Of a stretch of DNA of 64,000 nt, positions 43,595 through 52,679 are shown piece by piece. The first letter of the stretch is position 1; the number at the start of each line of letters is the position of its first letter. Origin of the DNA: Candidatus Latescibacterota bacterium (GTDB lineage: Bacteria > Krumholzibacteriota > Krumholzibacteriia > WVZY01). The DNA is taken from positions 96,001 to 160,000 of the forward strand of contig CAWBQK010000001.1 in NCBI GenBank assembly GCA_963791045.1. The letters are read 5' to 3'. Both the position numbers and the translations under genes were made by a program. The notes below the pieces were generated by a model. It made no database searches. It worked only from the letters and a program-made list of their open reading frames with translations, and was not told the DNA's origin.

Positions 43595-44470
43595 TCAGAA
43601 CGCATCCATGACGTCACGAATCAACTCTTCGATTGTTTCCGTGTATTCGAGAATGAACTTCTTCATCTCCTTGGAATCGAGATCGTTCCGGTTGTCATAC
43701 AATTGCTGATGCCCTTTGGCAATCTTGCGGAGAATTTTTCCGTAGGCTCGGGCGGCGCCCCGTTTCGCGTCGAGCGTCGACTCTTCCTTTTGCCACAGGT
43801 CATAGACAAGAACGGCTGCAAGCGGCTCTTCTTCTCCCCCCGTTTTTACTTTTCCTAGAAAGTATTTCCGCGCCGCTTCACTTTCGCGATCGAGGAGCCG
43901 CAGGTAGTCCTCGCTAACGACATCATCGAGCATGGTGGTCAAAACCTGGATGTCGTCGTTGGTCCGCTCAATGGCTTTGCCCAGTTCGCTCCTCCGCCAA
44001 CCTCCGCCGGCGACTTCGACCAGGAAACTCGACACACCTTCGACGGCCTCCACCCGGCGTTCGTCGAACGGGTACGTATCCCCGAAAGCGTCAGCCAGGT
44101 CGTCAAACTCGTCGTCGTAATCCAGCGTTTTCTTATCGGCCAGTTTCGAAAGGGCCTTCAAATAGTCGACAAGGACACGGTTGGTTTTGCGAAGGCCTTT
44201 CGCCGCTTTCTTATAGTCTTTGCAGGCAGAGCCGCCGGCGACGCGAAGCGAGTCGAGGGTTGGATCAGACACGGAGAGACCTTGATAATACTGCTGGCGA
44301 ACACACGATCGGCTTATGTCTTTTTGGATACCGGCAAACTGTTCGCTCGCCGTCTTCGAGACCCCCGCATACCTCTTGACGGTGGTGGGAGCGGTGCAGC
44401 CGCTCGCGAAGAGAGCGGCGACGAGAACAATAACCGACACACCCAAAAATTTTCGTTCATTCTTAATCAC
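43595..44470 (-). CDS. Hypothetical alpha-helical lipoprotein
   Basis: GTG 44470 after GAGGTG; signal peptide ending FASGC; amphipathic helices throughout. Confidence 0.75.
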   Translation of the reverse strand: MIKNERKFLGVSVIVLVAALFASGCTAPTTVKRYAGVSKTASEQFAGIQKDISRSCVRQQYYQGLSVSDPTLDSLRVAGGSACKDYKKAAKGLRKTNRVLVDYLKALSKLADKKTLDYDDEFDDLADAFGDTYPFDERRVEAVEGVSSFLVEVAGGGWRRSELGKAIERTNDDIQVLTTMLDDVVSEDYLRLLDRESEAARKYFLGKVKTGGEEEPLAAVLVYDLWQKEESTLDAKRGAARAYGKILRKIAKGHQQLYDNRNDLDSKEMKKFILEYTETIEELIRDVMDAF

Positions 44471-44619
44471 GATTTTCACCTCGATATCTCGGGGTGCGGA
44501 AAACCTGGATGATGAACGGGAGGTGTCTGGGCTGTCGAGAGGGTCTCGTGCACCGACCGATGAAGGAGCTTCTACTCCTCTCGATTGTAAGACACACCGC
44601 CCTCCCGTGTCCATGCGGT

Positions 44620-44649
44620 TTGACTTGCCTGCCCCCGGTGGTCTATCTT
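44620..44649 (+). promoter_or_regulatory. Sigma70-type promoter for the amr operon
   Basis: TTGACT-N18-TATCTT. Confidence 0.5.
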
Positions 44650-44697
44650 TAGGACGAAGGTTCGGGTCGTGACGGGTCTCGAAACGGGCGGCTTCAC

Positions 44698-45972
44698 ATG
44701 TCCATTCTGAACGATTCGTTTTCAAAAGACCGGATGACGGCATCGGTGACGCGGCGCCGGTTTCTCGGGATCCTCGCGCGGTCGGCCGCTGTCGCCGGTG
44801 GCGCGGGCTTTCTCATAAACTCCCCGAATATCCCGAAGGCCATCGCCGCTAACTCGAGTTCGTCCACCGCAAAACTCAATCCAGCCGACGCGCCGCTCGC
44901 CAGATACTGGATCTCGTCGAACTCACGCGGCATCGACTGCTTGTCGTGTCATACGACCGATGACAACGTGGCCGGCGACCTCTTCGATCACGGCAAGGCC
45001 GTCATCAAGTGTGAGCTTTGCGCGCAAGCGTGCGTTATCCCTGAAGGAGAACGCGGTGAATGCCGCGCGCGGATGAATGTGGGCGGCACGCTGCGGAGCC
45101 TTGTCTACGGACGTCCCGTTTCCGTCCATGTCGATCCCATCGAAAAAAAACCGTTTTATCATTTCATGCCGGGCTCGGCCGCGTTCTCGATGGCGACCGC
45201 GGGGTGTCCGCTCCACTGCAAATTTTGTCAGAACTGGGAAATCTCCCAGTCGCGCCCCGAGGATTTCAACACCGAGTTCGTACCGCCCGACGCAATCGTA
45301 CACGAGTCGCTCAAACGTAACGCGCCGGTAATTGCTTTCACATATAACGAGCCGACGGTATTTACGGAGTACCTGACCGATATCGCGCGGCTCGCCCGCG
45401 ACGACGACATCAAATGCGTACTGATCAGCTGCGGGTTCATGAACGAGAAACCGCTCGACGAAATGTGTTCAGTACTGGACGCGATCAAGATAGATCTCAA
45501 AGGATTTGACAAGGAGTTCTACCGGCGAGTGTGCGGCGCCGAACTGGACCCGGTGTTGAGGAGCATCAAACAGGTTGCGAAGAGTGGGATCCATCTCGAG
45601 ATTGTCAACCTCGTCGTGCCCACGCTGAACGACTCCGATGAAATGCTCACGGGACTGGCGAAATGGGTGGTGGATGAGGTGGGTCCGGATGTACCCATCC
45701 ATTTTACGCGATTCCACCCCGATTATCAGATGCTTAACCTGCCGCCGACTCCGGTGGCGACACTCGAGAAAGCGTACGAGATCGCGAGGGACCAGGGTGT
45801 TCATTATCCGTTCGTGGGCAATGTTCCCGGTCACGAGGGAAATAACACCTATTGTCCACAGTGCGGCCAACCGGTCGTCTCCCGAAAAGGATTTTTTGTG
45901 TCGGATATTAGAATCGAAAATGGGCACTGCACGCAGTGCGGCGAAACCATCGCGGGGGTTTGGACGGATTGA
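44698..45972 (+). CDS. amrS: AmmeMemoRadiSam system radical SAM enzyme with Tat signal
   Basis: TRRRFL Tat motif; VDPIEKKPFYHF.PG, GCPLHCKFCQNWEISQ (CxxxCxxC), AFTYNEP, IDLKGF, HFTRFHP, C-terminal CPQC..CTQC. Confidence 0.94.
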   Translation: MSILNDSFSKDRMTASVTRRRFLGILARSAAVAGGAGFLINSPNIPKAIAANSSSSTAKLNPADAPLARYWISSNSRGIDCLSCHTTDDNVAGDLFDHGKAVIKCELCAQACVIPEGERGECRARMNVGGTLRSLVYGRPVSVHVDPIEKKPFYHFMPGSAAFSMATAGCPLHCKFCQNWEISQSRPEDFNTEFVPPDAIVHESLKRNAPVIAFTYNEPTVFTEYLTDIARLARDDDIKCVLISCGFMNEKPLDEMCSVLDAIKIDLKGFDKEFYRRVCGAELDPVLRSIKQVAKSGIHLEIVNLVVPTLNDSDEMLTGLAKWVVDEVGPDVPIHFTRFHPDYQMLNLPPTPVATLEKAYEIARDQGVHYPFVGNVPGHEGNNTYCPQCGQPVVSRKGFFVSDIRIENGHCTQCGETIAGVWTD

Positions 45973-46034
45973 CCGCTCGTCCGCGAAAAGCCAGCGAGGG
46001 TGGCTCACGAGAGAGGTTCACGAAAGAGGCTCGA

Positions 46035-47582
46035 ATGCGAGGCAGTAATATTTCTTTGGTCCGCTTTTTCTGTGTGATGGCGATCGCCATTTGTGTTGTG
46101 GGCTCTTCCCCACCCGGGGCGAAATCGTCGCGCGGCGGCGTCCGGCATCCCGCCGTGGCCGGACAGTTCTATCCATCGGATCCCGTCAAACTTGGGTACT
46201 CCATCGACGCTTTTCTCGATGACGCGCTCGAGCGGTTCGACGAAAAACCCGTAGCGATCGTGTGTCCGCATGCCGGTTACATTTACTCGGGGCAGATCGC
46301 CGCCGACGCCTACAAACAGGCGTCGAAACACAGCTACGATCTCGTCGTCATCGTGGGCGTTAATCATACGACGGGCGGGTTCCGGGACGTTTCAATTTAC
46401 GACGGCGAGGGTTACAAAACCCCGCTTGGAATCGCGGAAATCGACGCGGAGCTTTCCGCCGGACTCATCGCGGCGGACAACGACTTTGTGTTCAACAAAA
46501 AAGTCCACGAACGGGAACATTCTGTCGAAGTCCAGATCCCATTTATACAGAGGATCTTTCCCGCGACTCCCGTTGTTGCGGCGATCGTCGGCACGACGGA
46601 ACCCGAGCTGTGCGAGAAATTCGGCCGCACACTCGCCGGCATGCTAAAGGACAGGAACGCACTCATCGTGGCGAGCTGCGACCTGTCTCACTTCCCCCTC
46701 TACGATGACGCCGTCGAAGTCGACAAAAAGACGCTTGAAGCTTTCTCCACTATGGAGACAAGCGTCGTGCACTCGACTATCGAAAAACAAATGTCGCGGG
46801 GGGTGGCCAGCCTTTCGACATGCGCCTGTGGAGAAGCGTCTGTTCTCGCCGTCATGACCGCCGCCCGCGAGCTCGGCGCCGACGGCGCGCAGATCATCAG
46901 CTATGCAAATTCCGGCGACAGCCCCGTGGGAGACCATTCGCGTGTTGTCGGCTATGGGGCGGTCGCGTTTGTCAAAGGCGGCGAATCGGCCGAGGTTCCG
47001 CCGCTTCGAAACCCCCAGGACGGTGGCAAGACGGAATTCAGCGAAGATCAGCGGGAGGCGCTTCTCAAGTTCGCACGCAAGACCATTCGCCAGTATCTCA
47101 CCGGAGGGACGGCGCCGCTCGCGCGGGGATTCGATCCGGTGGTCGAAACAAACAAGGGCGCTTTTGTCACCCTCAAGAAAGACGGCGATCTGCGCGGTTG
47201 TATCGGCCACATGATTGACGATCTCCCGCTGTCGCAGGTTGTCGGGTATTGCGCGCTGCAGGCGGCGTTCAACGACCGCAGGTTTTCGCCGCTCGAACTC
47301 GGCGAACTCGATGACATCGACATCGAAATCTCCGTTCTAACGCCTTACGAACAAGTCGACGGTCATCGCGATATCAAAATCGGACGCGATGGCGTTCTTA
47401 TAAAAAAGGACGGCCGGTCGGCCGTGTACCTCCCGTCGGTCGCCGTAGAACAGGGCTGGACACTCGAGGAAACCCTCACCCACCTGTCGCGAAAAGCGGG
47501 ACTCCCCGGTGACGGCTGGAAGGAAGGAACGACGTTTTACACATTCCAGGCGATCGTGTTTGGCGAGGTCGAGACCCACTAA
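46035..47582 (+). CDS. amrB: AmmeMemoRadiSam protein B (MEMO1-like) fused to protein A (AMMECR1-like)
   Basis: N-terminal signal; PAVAGQFYP, PHAGYIYSG, EHSVEVQIPF, DLSH, YANSGD; then GAFVTL..LRGCIG, AAFNDRRF, IEISVL, YLPSVA..QGW, KAG. Confidence 0.93.
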   Translation: MRGSNISLVRFFCVMAIAICVVGSSPPGAKSSRGGVRHPAVAGQFYPSDPVKLGYSIDAFLDDALERFDEKPVAIVCPHAGYIYSGQIAADAYKQASKHSYDLVVIVGVNHTTGGFRDVSIYDGEGYKTPLGIAEIDAELSAGLIAADNDFVFNKKVHEREHSVEVQIPFIQRIFPATPVVAAIVGTTEPELCEKFGRTLAGMLKDRNALIVASCDLSHFPLYDDAVEVDKKTLEAFSTMETSVVHSTIEKQMSRGVASLSTCACGEASVLAVMTAARELGADGAQIISYANSGDSPVGDHSRVVGYGAVAFVKGGESAEVPPLRNPQDGGKTEFSEDQREALLKFARKTIRQYLTGGTAPLARGFDPVVETNKGAFVTLKKDGDLRGCIGHMIDDLPLSQVVGYCALQAAFNDRRFSPLELGELDDIDIEISVLTPYEQVDGHRDIKIGRDGVLIKKDGRSAVYLPSVAVEQGWTLEETLTHLSRKAGLPGDGWKEGTTFYTFQAIVFGEVETH

Positions 47583-47600
47583 CCCACAGAGAGAATTCCG

Positions 47601-49760
47601 GTGATTCTTTTTCTCTTCTCTATCGGTCTCATTTCTATCCTCGGCCAGGTCGTCATCCTTCGTGAGCTGAACGTTGCTTTCTACGGCGTCGAACTTATTT
47701 TTATCCTCGCCATGGGTGTGTGGCTGTTGTGGACGGCCCTCGGTGCGCTTGCCGGACGACGCAATTATTCTCCGGCGGCGCACGTCGTCGAGTGGTTGTT
47801 TGTCTGTTTCGCCGTTCTACTGCCGCTCGATATCGCTTTTATCCGTTCGATGCGTGATATCTTCGGCGCCGTTCCCGGCACGTATTTGCCATTCGGCTAT
47901 CAGTTGCTGGGGGTCGTGATCGCGCTCTTCCCGCCGGGAATACTTCTTGGCCTCCTTTTTCAATGGGCGGCAAAACGGTATGCGGCGGACGGCGGAACGC
48001 TCGCGACCGCATATGCCGTCGAAAGCGCGGGCGGGCTTATCGGAGGTCTTGCGTCGACACTTCTCCTCCAAACCGGCGTGTCCAATTTTTCCGCGGCACT
48101 CGTGTGCGGTCTTGCCGCCACGGTGACAGTGGTCGCCGCCCCGGCGAGCGGTCGTTCGCGCACAAGAATCGCGGGCCTGATCGTGTTTGCCGCCCTGCTG
48201 GTATTGGTATTTACCTCGCGGCAAATCGATCATACCTTGACACGCATCACTCACCCTTCGCTGGTCGACTCGAAAGACTCGCCGTACGGCAGAATCTCGA
48301 TAGAGGAACACTCGGGACAGTATATCGTTTTTGAAAACGACGCGTTTTCATTCGACACCGAGGGCGCGGGGAGCGAGGAACTCGTCCACCTGGCCGCGAT
48401 CCAAATCGACTCTTTGAGCGATGTGCTCGTCCTCGGGGGCGGGCTCGACGGCACGCTCCGCGACCTCTTGAAACACAATCCCCGGCGCGTCGATTTTGTC
48501 GAAATTAATCGCATCCTTCTCTCGGCCATCGACGCGAATCTCCCCCCCGGCTTAATCGAGCCAATGCACCCTCCCTCGGTGTCGACGACCATCGAGGATC
48601 CACGGCGCTACGTGGACAGGCCGGGTCGATATGATCTCATACTCGTGGGGATGCCCGACCCCGCATCGGGGCAGTCAAACCGCTTTTACACACGTGATTT
48701 TTTTGAGCAGTGCGCCGAGGCGCTTCGCCCAGGCGGCGTGCTCGCCTTCCGCCTCCGCTCTCCCGAGAATATCTGGACCCCCTTTGTCACTTACCGGAAT
48801 TCGAGTATTTTCAACGCGCTCAAAATGGCATTTGTGGATGTCGTCGTACTCCCCGCCAGCGCAAATATTGTCATCGCGTCGATGGGCCCGCTCGATCGCG
48901 ACCCGCTTCGTCTGTCCCGGCGCCTCGACACGCTCAACATCACAACCAATTTAGTCACAAGCCAATACGTCAATTACCTCTATACAAATGACAGGTTTAC
49001 AGGGATCGCCGAGAGGCTCTCTTCGACCGACATTCCGGCGAACACCGACCTGCGGCCCATCTGCTACCGGTTCACCGGTATGATCTGGCTGTCGAAATTC
49101 CTGCCCGGTATGATCCACGCGGATATCCGTGGCGACACATCCGCATCGATTCCCCGCCGCGCGGCGATCATCCTCGCGGCGGTTCTCGCGATCGTTTTCC
49201 TCCTCGTGAAACGCCACCAGGGATTGCGAAGGGTCACGCTGGTTGCTGCGGCGGGTTTTCTTGCGATGGTGATGGAAACGGCGTTCATCCTTTATTACCA
49301 GTCGAAGTGCGGGGTGCTCTTCCAGAATATTGGCATCCTCATTATGATGTTCATGGCGGGGCTCGCCGTTGGCGCCATTTCTATCCGTTTCTTGATGGCG
49401 AACAAAAATATCCCGCGACCGATATCCGGGCCGAAGATTGGAATCAGCCTTTTTGGCGGTTTTGCCGTGGTGAATCTGCTTTTTTGGATCGGTTTGCGGC
49501 TTGGCCTCCCCACAAATCTCTCCTCGATTTCATTTTTTCTCTTTGGCGCCGGGTTTCTCGTTTCCGGTGTCTTCGCCTGGATGAGCCTCGACGGTGTTGA
49601 CGACCAGCGGCTCGTCGTTTCCCCGCTCTATTCCGCCGACCTTCTTGGTGGGTGCGTCGGATCGCTCGCCGCCGGCTTGTTTCTGATTCCATTCCTTGGA
49701 ATCGAACTCTCCACGGGGACCGTCGCGGTCTTGTCCGCCTTGTGCCTGCTGCTCATCTGA
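47601..49760 (+). CDS. Membrane protein with central spermidine-synthase-like (SAM-binding) domain
   Basis: About 7 N-terminal and 6 C-terminal TM helices around DSPYGRI, EELVH, VLVLGGGLDG, VEIN, DPR, YDLILV..PDP, RFYT.DFF, L.PGGVL, NTDLRP. Confidence 0.85.
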   Translation: MILFLFSIGLISILGQVVILRELNVAFYGVELIFILAMGVWLLWTALGALAGRRNYSPAAHVVEWLFVCFAVLLPLDIAFIRSMRDIFGAVPGTYLPFGYQLLGVVIALFPPGILLGLLFQWAAKRYAADGGTLATAYAVESAGGLIGGLASTLLLQTGVSNFSAALVCGLAATVTVVAAPASGRSRTRIAGLIVFAALLVLVFTSRQIDHTLTRITHPSLVDSKDSPYGRISIEEHSGQYIVFENDAFSFDTEGAGSEELVHLAAIQIDSLSDVLVLGGGLDGTLRDLLKHNPRRVDFVEINRILLSAIDANLPPGLIEPMHPPSVSTTIEDPRRYVDRPGRYDLILVGMPDPASGQSNRFYTRDFFEQCAEALRPGGVLAFRLRSPENIWTPFVTYRNSSIFNALKMAFVDVVVLPASANIVIASMGPLDRDPLRLSRRLDTLNITTNLVTSQYVNYLYTNDRFTGIAERLSSTDIPANTDLRPICYRFTGMIWLSKFLPGMIHADIRGDTSASIPRRAAIILAAVLAIVFLLVKRHQGLRRVTLVAAAGFLAMVMETAFILYYQSKCGVLFQNIGILIMMFMAGLAVGAISIRFLMANKNIPRPISGPKIGISLFGGFAVVNLLFWIGLRLGLPTNLSSISFFLFGAGFLVSGVFAWMSLDGVDDQRLVVSPLYSADLLGGCVGSLAAGLFLIPFLGIELSTGTVAVLSALCLLLI

Positions 49761-49934: not shown

Positions 49935-50705
49935 ATGAGTAACCCACTTGATAGCACACCGACGCTGAGTCGTGTGCCGGCAAGTCTCGATGTAACACAG
50001 AGCATCACGGGGCTAGTCCTCGCGCTCTTTATGTGGGCTCACTTGCTTCTCGTCTCGAGCATATTGCTCGGCAAGGACGCCATGTACTACGTGGCTGGCG
50101 CGTTCGAGCTCAAATTTCTCACCGGATGGCAGCACGGATACCCGATTATCGTTACGATAATCGGGATAATTGTTTTTGCCCTCTTTATCGTTCACGCGGG
50201 GATCGCGCTGCGGAAGTTCCCTGTCTCCTGGAAACAGTACCGGATATTCCGGCACCAGATGGGGATGATGAAACACCAGGACACAAACCTCTGGTTCTGG
50301 CAGGCGCTCACGGGCTTTGTCATGTTTTTCCTCGGTTCGGTTCACGCCTACATAATGATCACCAATCCGGAGAAAATAGGACCGTATGCTTCGGCCGACC
50401 GTTTTGTAACCGGATGGATGTGGCCTCTCTATTTCTTGCTGTTGTTTGCCGTTGAGATTCATGCGGCGGTCGGGGTCTACCGGCTCGCGGTCAAGTGGGG
50501 CACGTTTGACGGAAAAGATCCGCGCAAAAACCGGAAGCGACTCAAGGTTTTCAAAAACGCGCTGACGACTGTATTTCTTATTATCGGCCTCATGACATTC
50601 GCCGCGTATGTAAAAATTGGAATCGAACACAAAGACAGGGCGGGCGAGCGATACTCACCCGCGGGACATTCATCGGCTTTGCTGGACCGAGGTGATATCG
50701 GATGA
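49935..50705 (+). CDS. frdC: Fumarate reductase dihaem cytochrome b subunit (Wolinella type)
   Basis: [61 protein letters not shown]. Confidence 0.93.
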
Positions 50706-52679
50706 AAGTCGTCTATACGGATTCATTGGTGATTGGTGGCGGACTGGCGGGTCTCCGTACGGCTATCGCCACAAAAATGAGGGGGCTCGACACAATCGTT
50801 CTCTCGTTGATCCCCGCAAAACGTTCGCATTCGGCGGCCGCGCAGGGTGGAATGCAGGCGAGCCTTGCCGCCGCGATCAAGAGCGAGGGTGACAACGAAG
50901 ATGTCCACTTCTCCGACACCGTCAAGGGGAGCGACTGGGGATGCGACCAGGATGTAGCGCGGATGTTTGCGCAGTGCGCACCCAAGGCGGCACGCGAGTT
51001 GTCCGCGTGGGGCGTTCCCTGGACGCGCGTCCGAAGGGGTCCACACCAGGTGATCATCAATGCGGAAAAAGTCACAATCAATGAAAAAGATGAGGCCCAC
51101 GGGCTCATCACAGCCAGGGATTTCGGTGGAACAAAGAATGGCGAACCTGTTACACCGCGGACGGCACCGGACACACAATGCTGTATGCGATGGACAACAA
51201 AGGCAATCGAACTGGGGATCCCCGTCCACGAGCGCAAGGAAGCCATCGCGCTGATCCATGACGGCAAGACAGTGTTACGGCGCCGTGGTCCGCGACCTCA
51301 TCACCGGCGAACTCATCGCTTATGTGTCAAAAGCGACCACCATCGCGACCGGCGGCTACGGCCGGATCTATTCCGTGTCGACAAACGCCGTAATCAGCGA
51401 AGGCATCGGATGCGCGATCGCGCTCGAAACCGGCGTCGCCGCCCTGGGCAACATGGAAGCGGTCCAGTTTCACCCGACGGCAATCGTCCCGGTGGGAATT
51501 CTCACCACCGAAGGATGCCGCGGTGACGGCGGACTGCTCAAGGATGTGGATGGTTACCGGTTCATGCCGGATTACGAACCCGGAAAGAAAGAGCTGGCCT
51601 CGCGTGACGTGGTATCGCGGCGGATGACCGAGCACATGAGAAAAGGCAAGGGTGTCCCGTCGCCATACGGAGGATCACCTCTGGCTCGACATCACCCTTC
51701 TCGGCAAGGAGCACATCGAAAAGAACCTCCGCGAGGTCAAGGAGATCTGCGAATACTTCCTCGGCATCGACCCTGTGACCGAGTACATCCCCGTCCGTCC
51801 CACGCAGCATTATTCCATGGGTGGGATCCGAACCGACCACACCGGTATGAGCCGTCAGCTCGACGGACTTTTCGCCGCGGGCGAGGTGGCATGTTGGGAC
51901 ATGCACGGATTCAACCGGCTTGGCGGCAATTCGGTTGCCGAAACGGTTGTCGCCGGGATGATCGTCGGTGAATTCGTCGCCGACTACTGCGAAGGCGCCG
52001 ACATGTCGACATTCCAACCTCGTTGGTCGAGAGATTTCGTCAAGCGCGAGGAAGCCAAGATCACCGATATTATAAACAGATCGAGCGGCGAAGACGTTTA
52101 CGAACTCAAAGAGGCCATGCAGCAAATCATGATGGACAAGGTCGGGATTTTCCGCAACGGAACCGATCTCGACCCAAGCCGTCGATGAACTCGAGGCGCT
52201 CGTCGCGCGAAGCCGGAATGTCGCGATACAAAACAAGATTCGCTCGTCCAATCCCGAGCTTGTCGATGCGATCCGCGTCCCGATGATGATCAAGCTAGCC
52301 GCTTGTGTCGCGGCGGGCGCATCCGCGCGAACGGAGAGCCGAGGCGCGCACTTCAGAGAAGACTATCCGGAACGAAACGACCGGGACTGGCTCAAACGCA
52401 CCCTGTCGATCTGGAAAAACGAGGGTGACAATCTGCCCGACGCTCGAGTATGACGATCTCGATATCATGAAAATGGAGATGCCGCCGGGCTCGCGCGGTT
52501 ATGGCGGCGCCACAATAATCGATCACCCGGACACCGAAAAAAGGGTCCAGCAGGTCGAAGAAATCAAGAAAGCGAACCCGAACGCCGACCGGTTCGAGAT
52601 CCAGAAGGCGCTTATGCCGTACGATCTTCCCGAAAAATACAGGGGCAAAAACGAGCGGATAGGAGTTGGTTTCGAATGA
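50702..52679 (+). CDS. frdA: Fumarate reductase flavoprotein subunit, broken by about 6 single-base frameshifts
   Basis: [85 protein letters not shown] spread across frames; shifts near 51137, 51200, 51269, 51670, 52175, 52437. Confidence 0.92.

Follow-up and report, generated by a model that had tools for sequence, protein, structure and literature searches.

The operon at positions 44698-49760 of the window (the whole 64,000-nt stretch of DNA analysed) comprised three genes, encoding AmrS, an AmrB-AmrA (AmrBA) fusion and a polytopic membrane protein, at the coordinates given in the initial annotation and on the + strand (as for all features below). Sequence features and AF2 models support reading it as an AmmeMemoRadiSam system of extracytoplasmic type, that is, a known system in a new, periplasm-facing form. 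The best explanation of the whole, with a probability of about 0.6, is an extracytoplasmic AmmeMemoRadiSam paralogue in which AmrS would receive electrons through haem, the membrane protein would present an adenosyl compound, and AmrBA would finish the product. The extracytoplasmic pathway proposed in the initial annotation stood. Its suggestion of SAM or polyamine supply, binding or recycling by the membrane protein is an inference, the observations that bear on it being retained adenosyl-binding residues, a lost gatekeeper and catalytic Asp, and charged residues conserved within the TM helices. Radical SAM chemistry outside the cytoplasm would be very unusual, and the locus offers a new handle on protein families of unknown function. 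Signals and topology were assigned with our own heuristics and AF2.

The putatively exported AmrS and the AmrB-AmrA fusion

The first gene (44698..45972) encoded an AmrS-like radical SAM enzyme of 424 aa, a putatively exported paralogue, which matched TIGR04337 over aa 101-423 only (about 369.7-371 bits, cut-off 220) and Pfam Radical_SAM at aa 167-315. Cys170, Cys174 and Cys177 of CX3CX2C, which lie in CPLHCKFC (aa 170-177, 45205..45228), the motif for the radical SAM cluster, were invariant in 33/33 rows of the AmrS alignment A1. A twin-arginine signal peptide was predicted at aa 1-50 (44698..44847), where TRRRFL (aa 18-23, bases 44749-44766) was followed by GILARSAAVAGGAGFLI, a Lys-bearing c-region and AIA before Ala; the h-region was short and weakly hydrophobic, and cleavage after AIA (aa 48-50) was read from the sequence, not from a SignalP result. 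The AF2 model had a helix at aa 19-38 and low confidence at aa 1-17 and 33-56. The Tat consensus was kept in 106 of the 120 closest homologues (61-100% identity), in agreement with the signal noticed initially. Since this motif is conserved, and since signals and membrane gene co-occur across phyla (see below), the signals are more than chance; with a conserved Tat signal, AmrS is probably exported in a folded state, Fe-S clusters in place. TatC was not found in the source genome, which is 81% complete, and was present in 18/20 relatives.

A ~30-aa insertion (aa 72-100, 44911..44997), absent from canonical AmrS in alignment A1, including the canonical paralogue, carried CLSCH (aa 81-85, bases 44938-44952) and His98 (44989-44991) and is a candidate c-type haem site. 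The next His followed CxxCH after 11 or 13 residues in 104/120 homologues, and one member of the same subclade, L006, lacked the insertion. A search of 1.84 billion representatives gave a single non-spurious match outside AmrS, to the repeats of an 18-unit Cytochrome_C7 multihaem protein. The source genome had 2 Cytochrom_C_asm matches, and CxxCH occurred at least twice in each of 22 ORFs. In the subclade of the window, the CxxCH...H unit would receive c-type haem after export, and the haem would draw on periplasmic cytochromes for the electrons that reduce the radical SAM cluster.

The second gene (46035..47582) encoded an AmrB (Memo)-AmrA (AMMECR1) fusion of 515 aa, with Pfam Memo (8e-58) at about 46146-46961 and AMMECR1 (4e-51) at about 47064-47561, scoring 234 bits with TIGR04336 (cut-off 26) and 165 bits with TIGR04335 (cut-off 99). 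The frame is open from GTG 45936; an RBS-like AAAGAGG was located six bases 5' of ATG 46035, which, rather than 45936, is the likely start, giving MRGSNISLVRFFCVMAIAICVVGSSPPGA... From this ATG, a Sec-type signal peptide (46035..46121) was predicted, made up of MRGSNISLVR, FFCVMAIAICVVG and SSPPGA. In 18 loci, the fetched stretch contained an AmrB along with a signal-bearing AmrS; 17 of them had a fused AmrBA whose N-terminus was hydrophobic or lipoprotein-like, the 18th being cut off by the contig end, and the homologous N-termini often ended in lipobox-like xxGC or xxAC. Solo AmrB beside canonical AmrS had no signal in 9/10 cases and a weakly hydrophobic N-terminus in the tenth. Both AmrS candidate ATGs (44698 and 44734) lay 5' of the RR motif; the starts of AmrS and AmrBA are upstream of their signals, and the signal segments were conserved at the protein level. 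AmrBA would process the radical-modified substrate downstream of AmrS, the substrate probably being an envelope or membrane-leaflet molecule.

The membrane protein and its SpeE-fold domain

The third gene (47601..49760) started with GTG 18 bases 3' of the AmrBA stop and encoded a polytopic protein of 719 aa, for which the AF2 model (pLDDT 88.7, pTM 0.89) had seven TM helices, a soluble domain and, at once, TM8. TM1-TM7 (aa 2-204, 47604..48212; helices 2-26, 31-51, 60-88, 98-129, 134-157, 162-179 and 187-204) formed the first membrane repeat plus TM7, the SpeE-fold domain, recognised by Foldseek and Pfam and predicted to be periplasmic, occupied aa 205-515 (48213..49145), and TM8 with the second membrane repeat occupied aa 516-718 (49146..49754; helices 516-536, 540-570, 573-600, 610-634, 640-663 and 673-718). 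Motifs were shared between the first (Y138..E141..G144...G149) and second (Y677..D680..G683) repeats, and an architecture of two homologous repeats joined by a TM7-TM8 hairpin, the loop of which is the SpeE-fold domain, is strongly supported. Q16, R21, E31, W41 and E141 were conserved in the first repeat. The KRHQGLRR loop comes after TM8. Pfam MFS_1 was found in none of 21 family members.

Short loops averaged 17.1 K+R on the N-terminal side versus 3.0 on the domain side, and the inner side was the richer in K+R in 139/139 homologues of the membrane protein. In one related locus, L056, the membrane protein was fused to a NosR/NapH-like module, with eight TM segments between the SpeE-fold domain and an FMN_bind domain bearing an SGAT flavinylation motif. 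FMN_bind domains are periplasmic in NosR, RnfG and NqrC; the even TM count therefore places the SpeE-fold domain outside. Together with the seven preceding helices, loop charge and fusion parity strongly support a periplasmic position of the domain, as the initial annotation had predicted.

Pfam Spermine_synth covered aa 258-384, and Foldseek matched the domain to 1uir, 3anx, 6qmm and 1inl with TM-scores (target) of 0.70-0.77 and an E-value of 4e-12. In the alignment with 6qmm, the glycine motif LGGGLDGT gave GGGLDG in place of GGGDGG, the aminopropyltransferase gatekeeper Asp position thus being Leu, and VGMPDP stood against VDGSDP, the first Asp of DxxDP being Gly in the window protein and mostly Asn in relatives. 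The positions of the ribose-binding Glu and adenine-binding Asp were kept. Scores with SpeE models were far under their cut-offs (98 vs 472 and 57.6 vs 249.55). Given the loss of the gatekeeper and catalytic Asp and these scores, the protein is probably not an aminopropyltransferase, as the initial annotation had suspected from the GGGLDG motif. It would instead carry an adenosyl compound, most likely SAM, and present it on the outer membrane face, where AmrS would take it up; we know of no periplasmic source of SAM.

Distribution and alternative explanations

In an AmrS tree of 83 rows, 53 fell in one clade (SH-aLRT 98) that contained all 45 signal-bearing sequences, and 30/30 rows outside it were signal-less; the window AmrS belonged to an all-Tat subclade of 25 (SH-aLRT 99). 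Eight clade members were signal-less, and 11 members plus 2 frameshifted ones had Sec-type instead of Tat signals, which are hard to reconcile with a multi-Fe-S AmrS. The membrane gene was present in 25/44 loci with signal-bearing versus 4/37 with signal-less AmrS, three of these four being in the same clade and one beside a Tat copy, and lay <=2 kb from AmrS in 27/28 loci. Where the locus lacked it, a homologue was encoded elsewhere in 5/5 genomes (E no higher than 2e-71); four of these homologues were full length, and that of the fifth genome (G210) was divided between frames. Of 5 genomes having only a canonical AmrS locus, 0/5 gave a full-length match. Across phyla, the membrane gene occurred together with AmrS and AmrBA that both bear signals. 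The outcomes that the initial annotation had named as contrary to its reading, namely starts downstream of the signals, a cytoplasmic SpeE-like domain and missing co-occurrence, were examined and none was found. Clade-specific redox neighbours were Tat-DUF362 (11 loci), DsbD_2 (CcdA-like; 6 loci) and the single NosR/NapH-like fusion; other lineages would meet the electron need by such a fusion, by CcdA-like genes or by the Tat-DUF362 protein. A separate set of AmrS, AmrBA and AmrA in the source genome was signal-less, its cytoplasmic nature being strongly supported, and its AmrS scored 646 bits with TIGR04337 versus 371 bits for the exported copy. The initial annotation had covered neither the CxxCH insertion, the cytoplasmic paralogues and the redox neighbours nor the catalytic Asp loss and the Sec-type and signal-less exceptions in the clade.

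To our knowledge, the SAM and low-potential donor needed by radical SAM enzymes are known only from the cytoplasm, and it seems improbable, though conceivable, that the N-termini of AmrS and AmrBA are inner-face anchors or vestigial, with the SpeE-fold domain cytoplasmic and SAM and reductant drawn from the cytoplasm. The eight signal-less members, the 11 with Sec-type or anchor N-termini ill-suited to export of a folded Fe-S enzyme, and the missing TatC would fit this arrangement. However, the window AmrS has a full Tat consensus, a short weak h-region and an AxA site rather than a 20-residue anchor, the signals of AmrBA are short and in many cases resemble those of lipoproteins, charge bias and FMN_bind parity put the domain outside, the CxxCH unit and the CcdA-like and NosR-like neighbours make sense only there, and a signal-less set is already present in the genome. 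Also unlikely, if somewhat less so, is a membrane-straddling pathway in which the side of AmrS is inessential, the substrate is embedded in the membrane (a lipid, an isoprenoid, a quinone or even the membrane protein), is held or flipped by the SpeE-like protein and is reachable from both faces, and AmrBA finishes outside. In three loci (L018, L056 and L069), AmrS is signal-less, yet AmrBA bears a signal and the membrane gene is adjacent; charged residues are conserved within TM helices; and Memo contexts are reportedly tied by Burroughs et al. 2019 (JBC) to aliphatic isoprenoid modification. These three cases could, however, be Tat hitchhikers, a lipid substrate is hypothetical, and AmrS is predicted to lie outside throughout the all-Tat subclade that includes the window, so the SAM problem would persist.

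Haems of the c7-like kind are usually higher in potential than radical SAM clusters, which speaks against the haem step. It is a distinct possibility that CxxCH...H arose by partial duplication of the neighbouring CxxCxxxC and provides additional Zn or Fe-S ligands, electrons arriving by another route: the insertion directly precedes the conserved CxLCxxxC, where canonical AmrS has ARYW...CxLCP, C-x2-C...x13-H resembles Cys2His-type metal sites, the 60-aa segment with CxxCH had no significant match to a Pfam cytochrome family (E 0.13-0.18), and AF2 confidence in the region was moderate (pLDDT 67-79). Against this, C..CH was kept in 120/120 closest homologues, its invariant His after the second Cys being the haem c signature, unlike the neighbouring CxLC[AP]; the likeness to c7-type haem units spans 21 residues, ending FDH; and AmrS is predicted to be exported in a genome rich in c-type cytochromes. 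As for the third gene, its true SpeE fold, the weak matches to PRK03612 and, in 17/21 relatives, NF037959, and the naming of its 1221 homologues (E<=1e-10) as only 'hypothetical' or 'spermidine synthase' would suit an ordinary membrane-bound aminopropyltransferase or polyamine transporter that neighbours AmrS without a functional link. This is very improbable, given the failing SpeE scores and lost Asp residues, the NosR-like fusion in L056, and a gene that tracks the exported AmrS clade through many phyla and is absent beside canonical AmrS.

Comparison with known systems

Like the canonical AmmeMemoRadiSam system, the locus had clustered genes with TIGR04337 AmrS, TIGR04336 AmrB and TIGR04335 AmrA all above curated cut-offs, and CX3CX2C was kept, as were the Cys motifs at both termini. 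It differed in the Tat signal of AmrS and Sec signal of AmrBA, the ~30-aa insertion with CxxCH, the obligatory SpeE-fold membrane partner and the separate AmrS clade. The searched copy of the PDB contained no AmrS structure; among solved radical SAM enzymes, the nearest relative was pyruvate formate-lyase activating enzyme (PDB 3c8f, 3cb8), to which the core at aa 166-326 aligned with E 1e-07, although that enzyme is cytoplasmic, signal-less and devoid of the Cys motifs specific to AmrS, and its substrate is a glycyl-radical enzyme.

With polyamine aminopropyltransferases (SpeE; 1uir, 3anx, 6qmm, 1inl), the whole soluble fold was shared at about 20% identity, whereas the window-protein domain has an added invariant Asn360-Arg361 and sits, as predicted, periplasmically between two TM helices. 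The N-terminal membrane domain with Q..RE...FxGxE was common to NF002956/PRK03612 and the NF037959 'fused MFS/spermidine synthase'; PRK03612 matched the window protein at aa 3-391 (98 bits, cut-off 472), and NF037959, matched by the above relatives at E<=1e-3, did not match the window protein itself at that threshold. Unlike both, the window family has a second membrane repeat beyond the SpeE domain, and the domain therefore falls in an extracytoplasmic loop.

NosZ is a Tat-exported metalloenzyme and NosR its membrane flavo-Fe-S electron donor. The likeness is one of working principle only: a Tat-exported cofactor enzyme with a polytopic membrane partner, which in L056 carries fused FMN_bind and Fer4_5 modules, together with a pair of CxxxCP motifs, in the manner of NosR/NapH. 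The enzyme chemistry differs and the membrane protein of the window has no NosR module; by analogy, the CxxCH insertion of AmrS may take the role of that module in the window locus.

Operon organization and N-terminal signals

The first of the three genes in the operon (nt 44698–49760, + strand) encoded AmrS (nt 44698–45972, +), a radical SAM protein of 424 aa that matched TIGR04337 with 369.7 bits (cut-off 220) and in which Cys170, Cys174 and Cys177 of the CX3CX2C motif were invariant in the alignment. The match was limited to residues 101–423, and thus about 100 N-terminal residues fall outside the family model. The second gene (+) encoded AmrBA, a fusion of AmrB (Memo) and AmrA (AMMECR1) that was above both cut-offs (TIGR04336, 234.1 bits versus 26; TIGR04335, 165.2 versus 99); its reading frame opened with a GTG at nt 45936, and the ATG at nt 46035, from which the product has 515 aa, was preceded six bases upstream by AAAGAGG. 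The third gene (nt 47601–49760, +) had a GTG start and encoded a membrane protein of 719 aa, with Pfam Spermine_synth at residues 258–384. The gaps, about 62–63 bases between the genes of AmrS and AmrBA and 18 bases before the third gene, together with the shared strand, fit a single operon. By every criterion testable on the sequence, the operon is a member of the AmmeMemoRadiSam system; the accessible parts of the literature searched gave passing mentions of this system only and defined no substrate or reaction for it. At a locus fetched from another genome (L013:6907–9352, +), AmrS, AmrB and AmrA were fused in one ORF of 815 aa lacking a signal, which argues that the three activities physically cooperate in at least one lineage.

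Upstream of the operon, a divergent ORF (nt 43595–44743, −) had a lipoprotein-like N-terminus (LVAALFASGC); it matched no Pfam or NCBIfam family and was not conserved beside the operon in other loci. Downstream (nt 50702–52188, +), the flavoprotein subunit of a succinate dehydrogenase/fumarate reductase was divided among three ORFs that overlap one another in different frames (nt 50702–51526, 51258–51971 and 51652–52188, all +), and in each of them SdhA/FrdA-like sequence could be recognised; two frameshifts are indicated, reflecting either assembly errors or a pseudogene.

The N-terminus of AmrS read MSILNDSFSKDRMTASV-TRRRFL-GILARSAAVAGGAGFLI-NSPNIPKAIA/ANSS, agreeing with the twin-arginine pattern [ST]-R-R-x-F-L (T18-R-R-R-F-L23) followed by a weakly to moderately hydrophobic h-region (aa 24–40), a c-region containing a basic residue, and an AxA site (A48-I-A50). 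A twin-arginine signal had been proposed in the initial annotation, and it stood, since both candidate ATGs lay upstream of TRRRFL and the motif was kept in homologues. An RR motif occurred within the first 60 residues of 106 of the 120 best AmrS homologues (61–100% identity), most of the remainder being apparently truncated at the N-terminus; sources named among the 120 were Acidobacteriota, Thermodesulfobacteriota, Latescibacteria, Zixibacteria and Neomarinimicrobiota. Conservation of the signal over this range of identity shows that the peptide is translated. The N-terminal segment of AmrBA had been described as Sec-type or as an anchor, and from the ATG it read MRGSNISLVR-FFCVMAIAICVVG-SSPPGA, a signal of the Sec type.

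The assembly containing the window (21 contigs, 80.9% complete) carried further copies. A second AmrS (C13:265217–266263, −) matched TIGR04337 over the full model with 646 bits and started with MTKETTQSFQARYWHHLEDGRVQCDLCP, having no signal; a second fused AmrBA (C4:171786–173297, +), starting with MTDPFRVRKPAVAGSFYP, was also signal-less; and a solo AmrA (C6:80334–80861, +) was the third piece of this dispersed set. The three contigs together carry a complete predicted cytoplasmic AmmeMemoRadiSam set beside the signal-bearing operon. The signals are specific to the operon copy.

The membrane protein and its SpeE-fold domain

An AlphaFold2 model of the third protein, built on a 21-sequence alignment (pLDDT 88.7, pTM 0.89), had seven transmembrane helices (residues 2–26, 31–51, 60–88, 98–129, 134–157, 162–179 and 187–204), a soluble domain at about 205–515, and six further helices (516–536, 540–570, 573–600, 610–634, 640–663 and 673–718). 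When these helices were mapped onto 139 aligned homologues, the short loops contained on average 17.1 Lys+Arg on the N-terminal side versus 3.0 on the domain side, the inner side being richer in all 139 (14 versus 3 in the window protein). The two membrane halves were homologous, TM1 corresponding to TM9 and TM5 to TM13 (Y138-x2-E141-x2-G144-x4-G149 versus Y677-x2-D680-x2-G683), and therefore the repeats should be equally oriented, with the soluble domain as the loop of a hairpin formed by TM7 and TM8. Furthermore, a NosR-like fusion homologue of 1314 aa in a Pirellulales MAG (L056:7185–11126, +) had eight hydrophobic segments between the SpeE-fold domain and a Pfam FMN_bind domain with DAVSGATVSS (SGAT flavinylation motif), followed by NapH/NosR-type helices, Fer4_5, two CxxxCP motifs and a ferredoxin-like Cys cluster. 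In NosR, RnfG and NqrC, FMN_bind lies in the periplasm, and the even number of segments in the fusion assigns the SpeE-fold domain to that side too. Loop counts, repeat and helix model, and fusion parity were concordant, in keeping with the earlier placement of the domain outside by the positive-inside rule. No PDB structure matching the membrane part was listed by Foldseek.

For the soluble domain, the same search returned only aminopropyltransferases (1uir, 3anx, 6qmm and 1inl; E 4e-12), with TM-scores (target) of 0.70–0.77 at about 20% identity, and both the N-terminal beta domain and the Rossmann domain of the SpeE fold were present. Scores for the curated SpeE models were below cut-off (PRK03612, 98.2 versus 472; PRK00811, 77 versus 260; TIGR00417, 57.6 versus 249.55). 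Compared with the SpeE of Synechococcus (6qmm), the ribose-binding Glu (VDFVEIN versus VDLVEID) and the adenine-binding Asp (TIEDPRRY versus KIGDGIAF; Asp333, invariant in 21 of 21 relatives) were kept, whereas the Asp of GGGDGG corresponded to Leu and the first Asp of VDGSDP to Gly (VGMPDP). Across the 21 relatives, the first Asp of D-x-x-D-P was mostly replaced by Asn, Gly, Ser or His, while Asn360 was nearly invariant and Arg361 invariant. In SpeE, the gatekeeper Asp of GGGDG excludes the carboxylate of SAM and the first Asp of DxxDP deprotonates the amine. With these two defining residues absent and the models below cut-off, identity of the third protein as a SpeE enzyme was ruled out, and the doubt raised at the outset over the GGGLDG motif was justified. 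The domain is instead read as a putative binder of an adenosyl ligand. Polar residues conserved inside the helices (Q16, R21, E31, E141, Q567 and D680) suggest a polar path or a binding site within the membrane.

Membership in NF037959 (fused MFS/spermidine synthase) was rejected, because the window protein had no match at E ≤ 1e-3 and the domain order differs: in that family the MFS part precedes the SpeE domain, whereas here the SpeE-fold domain lies between two membrane repeats. Weak matches to NF037959 were obtained for 17 of the 21 relatives, and Pfam MFS_1 matched 0 of 21 members. The NCBIfam name of this related family, a sub-threshold MFS_1 match in the NosR-like fusion (28.4 versus 33.4 bits) and Atlas clusters with 16–24% MFS_1 members provide a lead that the transmembrane domain may be related to MFS. 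Members of the third-protein family, one of which is found in the cultured Desulfonema magnum, are publicly named "hypothetical protein" or "spermidine synthase"; the present analysis defines a family of SpeE-fold membrane proteins that still lacks a name of its own and is wrongly labelled spermidine synthase by current pipelines.

Distribution of signal-bearing AmrS and its partners

With one genome scanned for each species, 80 loci with flanks of up to 7 kb on each side were obtained, in which stop-to-stop ORFs were searched with the window proteins and N-termini were classed by simple rules. Among 81 AmrS genes, 28 had a Tat motif plus a hydrophobic stretch, 3 were Tat-like, 11 had a Sec-type signal or anchor, and 37 had none; two further genes (L021 and L051) had a signal/anchor segment immediately upstream in the neighbouring frame, an apparent frameshift. 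In both of these, the signal/anchor and the A.YY motif were in the +1 frame and the junction was identical, which may be a sequencing error or something recurrent.

In a maximum likelihood tree of the AmrS core (83 rows including the window copy and its cytoplasmic paralogue; IQ-TREE quick search, LG+G4), all 45 signal-bearing rows fell within one clade of 53 rows (SH-aLRT 98), and 30 of the 30 rows outside it were signal-less. The subclade with the window copy contained 25 rows, all Tat (SH-aLRT 99). Phyla represented in the clade included Acidobacteriota, Thermodesulfobacteriota, Omnitrophota, Planctomycetota, Zixibacteria, Eisenbacteria, KSB1, Verrucomicrobiota, Chlamydiota, Chloroflexota, Myxococcota and Nitrospirota.

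The partners followed the same division, and the predicted co-occurrence of signal-bearing AmrS, AmrBA and the membrane gene was thereby confirmed. At 18 loci with signal-bearing AmrS, an AmrB homologue lay within the fetched stretch; in 17 of these it was an AmrBA fusion whose N-terminus was hydrophobic and often ended in a lipobox-like xxGC/xxAC, and the 18th was truncated at a contig end. Beside canonical AmrS (signal-less and outside the clade), AmrB was a separate gene starting at the Memo core in 9 of 10 cases, the tenth being weakly hydrophobic. The membrane gene was present at 25 of 44 loci with signal-bearing AmrS versus 4 of 37 with signal-less AmrS; three of these four (L018, L056 and L069) belonged to the clade, and the fourth was a canonical copy beside a Tat copy (L065). 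Of 28 loci, 27 had the membrane gene within 2 kb of AmrS, and in 16 the two genes shared a strand. Where the signal-bearing locus lacked the membrane gene, a homologue was found elsewhere in 5 of 5 genomes (four full length, one split over frames), and in genomes known only from canonical loci a full-length match was found in 0 of 5, with two partial ones, both samples being small. In the phylum of the window, 81 of 208 sampled genomes had a match to the membrane gene (E about 3e-91 or better), most spanning both membrane repeats.

Other clade-specific neighbours varied with lineage. A DUF362 gene (PF04015, about 350 aa) was located directly upstream of Tat-type AmrS in 11 loci (L019, L023, L026, L034, L037, L040, L046, L047, L060, L061 and L066) and never beside canonical AmrS among the fetched loci; seven of the 11 products had a Tat motif by pattern, and among the four others, one was truncated at a contig end and one carried SRRSF. 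A CcdA-like DsbD_2 (PF13386) membrane protein was encoded beside AmrS in six loci (L007, L030, L031, L032, L035 and L050), all with Sec-type AmrS and most from Omnitrophota. DsbD_2/CcdA and NosR-type modules carry reducing power across the membrane, and such varied conduits attached to one core would be expected if the core acts outside and needs electrons. Three Acidobacteriota-type loci (L066:4738–5445, +; L037; L046) also encoded a DUF6599 protein (PF20244) in the vicinity of the operon.

Electron supply, location and comparison with known systems

Relative to the canonical paralogue, AmrS of the window subclade had about 30 extra residues between ARYW and VKCxLCxxxC, a feature absent from the initial annotation. 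In the window protein this insertion, located behind the Tat signal, contained C81-L-S-C84-H85 (CLSCH, aa 81–85) plus His98. The C..CH was present in 120 of the 120 closest homologues, with the next His 11 or 13 residues on in 104, and among the fetched loci the insertion was found in 5 of 6 rows of the window's subclade, being absent in L006. When the 60-residue segment was searched against 1.84 billion representatives (E ≤ 1e-3), five hits were obtained: two AmrS fragments, a kringle-repeat protein and a low-complexity repeat protein (P0241 and P0242, both discarded as spurious), and a 925-aa protein (P0243) with 18 Pfam Cytochrome_C7 stretches. The cytochrome repeat of the last, G-x-D-C-x-A-C-H-(x11-13)-F-D-H, shared 48% identity with GIDCLSCHTTDDNVAGDLFDH over 21 residues, a likeness at the level of a motif. 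Cytochrome c maturation was represented in the genome by two PF01578 matches on contig C11, and 22 of its ORFs had at least two CxxCH motifs, with a maximum of 19 in one ORF.

If haem were covalently bound to an exported Fe-S enzyme, it would be an obvious point of electron entry, and such a role for a c-type haem on AmrS has, in our estimate, an even chance of being right. The main alternative is that the insertion forms a Zn or Fe-S site, in favour of which the 60-residue segment had no significant match to a Pfam cytochrome c family (best, DUF1924, E 0.13, and PSCyt1, E 0.18). The insertion was modelled by AlphaFold2 with moderate confidence (pLDDT 67–79) and a short helix at residues 81–83. 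c-type haems are usually at higher potential than radical SAM clusters. In clade members that lack the insertion, a search next to AmrS for multihaem cytochrome genes was negative.

The need for SAM, Fe-S assembly and a low-potential donor is why radical SAM enzymes are regarded as cytoplasmic. Set against this, a large, phylogenetically coherent clade with export signals, exported partners, a dedicated membrane protein and lineage-specific conduits argues that many anaerobes perform radical chemistry with SAM in the periplasm and hence that SAM is supplied there. We assign a probability of roughly 0.75 to the reading, already put forward in the initial annotation, that all three predicted products act either in the periplasm or on the outer side of the cytoplasmic membrane. 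Several observations count against export. Eight clade members had no signal, although three of them (L018, L056 and L069) still had an AmrBA signal and an adjacent membrane gene; in these, AmrS may be co-exported with a partner, or the pathway may straddle the membrane. The eleven Sec-type AmrS N-termini had a positive n-region and an h-region of 15–24 residues, and such signals are difficult to square with the maturation of a multi-cluster enzyme once exported through Sec. No TatC (PF00902) was detected in the 80.9% complete genome of the window, although it was present in 18 of 20 relatives and strict Tat motifs occurred in six other ORFs of the same genome. We know of no periplasmic source of SAM.

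Starting from the extracytoplasmic location, a scheme may be sketched in which AmrS would be exported by the Tat route and receive electrons through its own c-type haem. The membrane protein would carry or dock SAM, or else a different adenosyl compound, a role that we regard as doubtful, and AmrBA would finish an envelope or outer-leaflet substrate, a proposal that is likewise speculative. Joined together, these steps would represent a first case of radical SAM chemistry outside the cytoplasm, with Tat-exported AmrS bearing covalent haem, a SAM-feeding transporter-like protein docking SAM on its periplasmic SpeE-fold domain, and exported Memo-AMMECR1 acting on an envelope or outer-leaflet molecule; as a whole, the scheme is offered tentatively and is rather unlikely to hold in every part. 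If true, it would amount to a widespread undescribed envelope pathway in Acidobacteriota, Thermodesulfobacteriota, Omnitrophota, Planctomycetota and others, and if the location alone holds, the working assumption of cytoplasmic radical SAM chemistry would be broken. To our knowledge, the biochemical function of the Memo and AMMECR1 families is unresolved, in humans included; the operon would give the first information on compartment and partners for their bacterial homologues and a first experimental foothold. The question can now be addressed directly by localising the products, assaying haem content and SAM binding or transport, and profiling envelope metabolites in knock-outs.

The accessible parts of the literature searched, which did not include the key Memo comparison of Burroughs et al. 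(2019), did not describe any exported radical SAM enzyme or such an operon, and contained nothing relevant on bacterial AMMECR1 with a signal peptide or on an MFS-fused transmembrane spermidine synthase. In the accessible text of PMC10924467, the radical SAM gene was a mere neighbour and not an exported enzyme; in that of the HXS phage-defence paper, the passage on a "Tat signal" dealt with fusions of signal peptides to the effector HxsA, recovered from periplasmic fractions, and not with an exported radical SAM enzyme. Compared with the canonical AmmeMemoRadiSam system, the operon differs in its predicted compartment, has an obligatory membrane partner and, within this subclade, carries a cytochrome-like insertion in AmrS.
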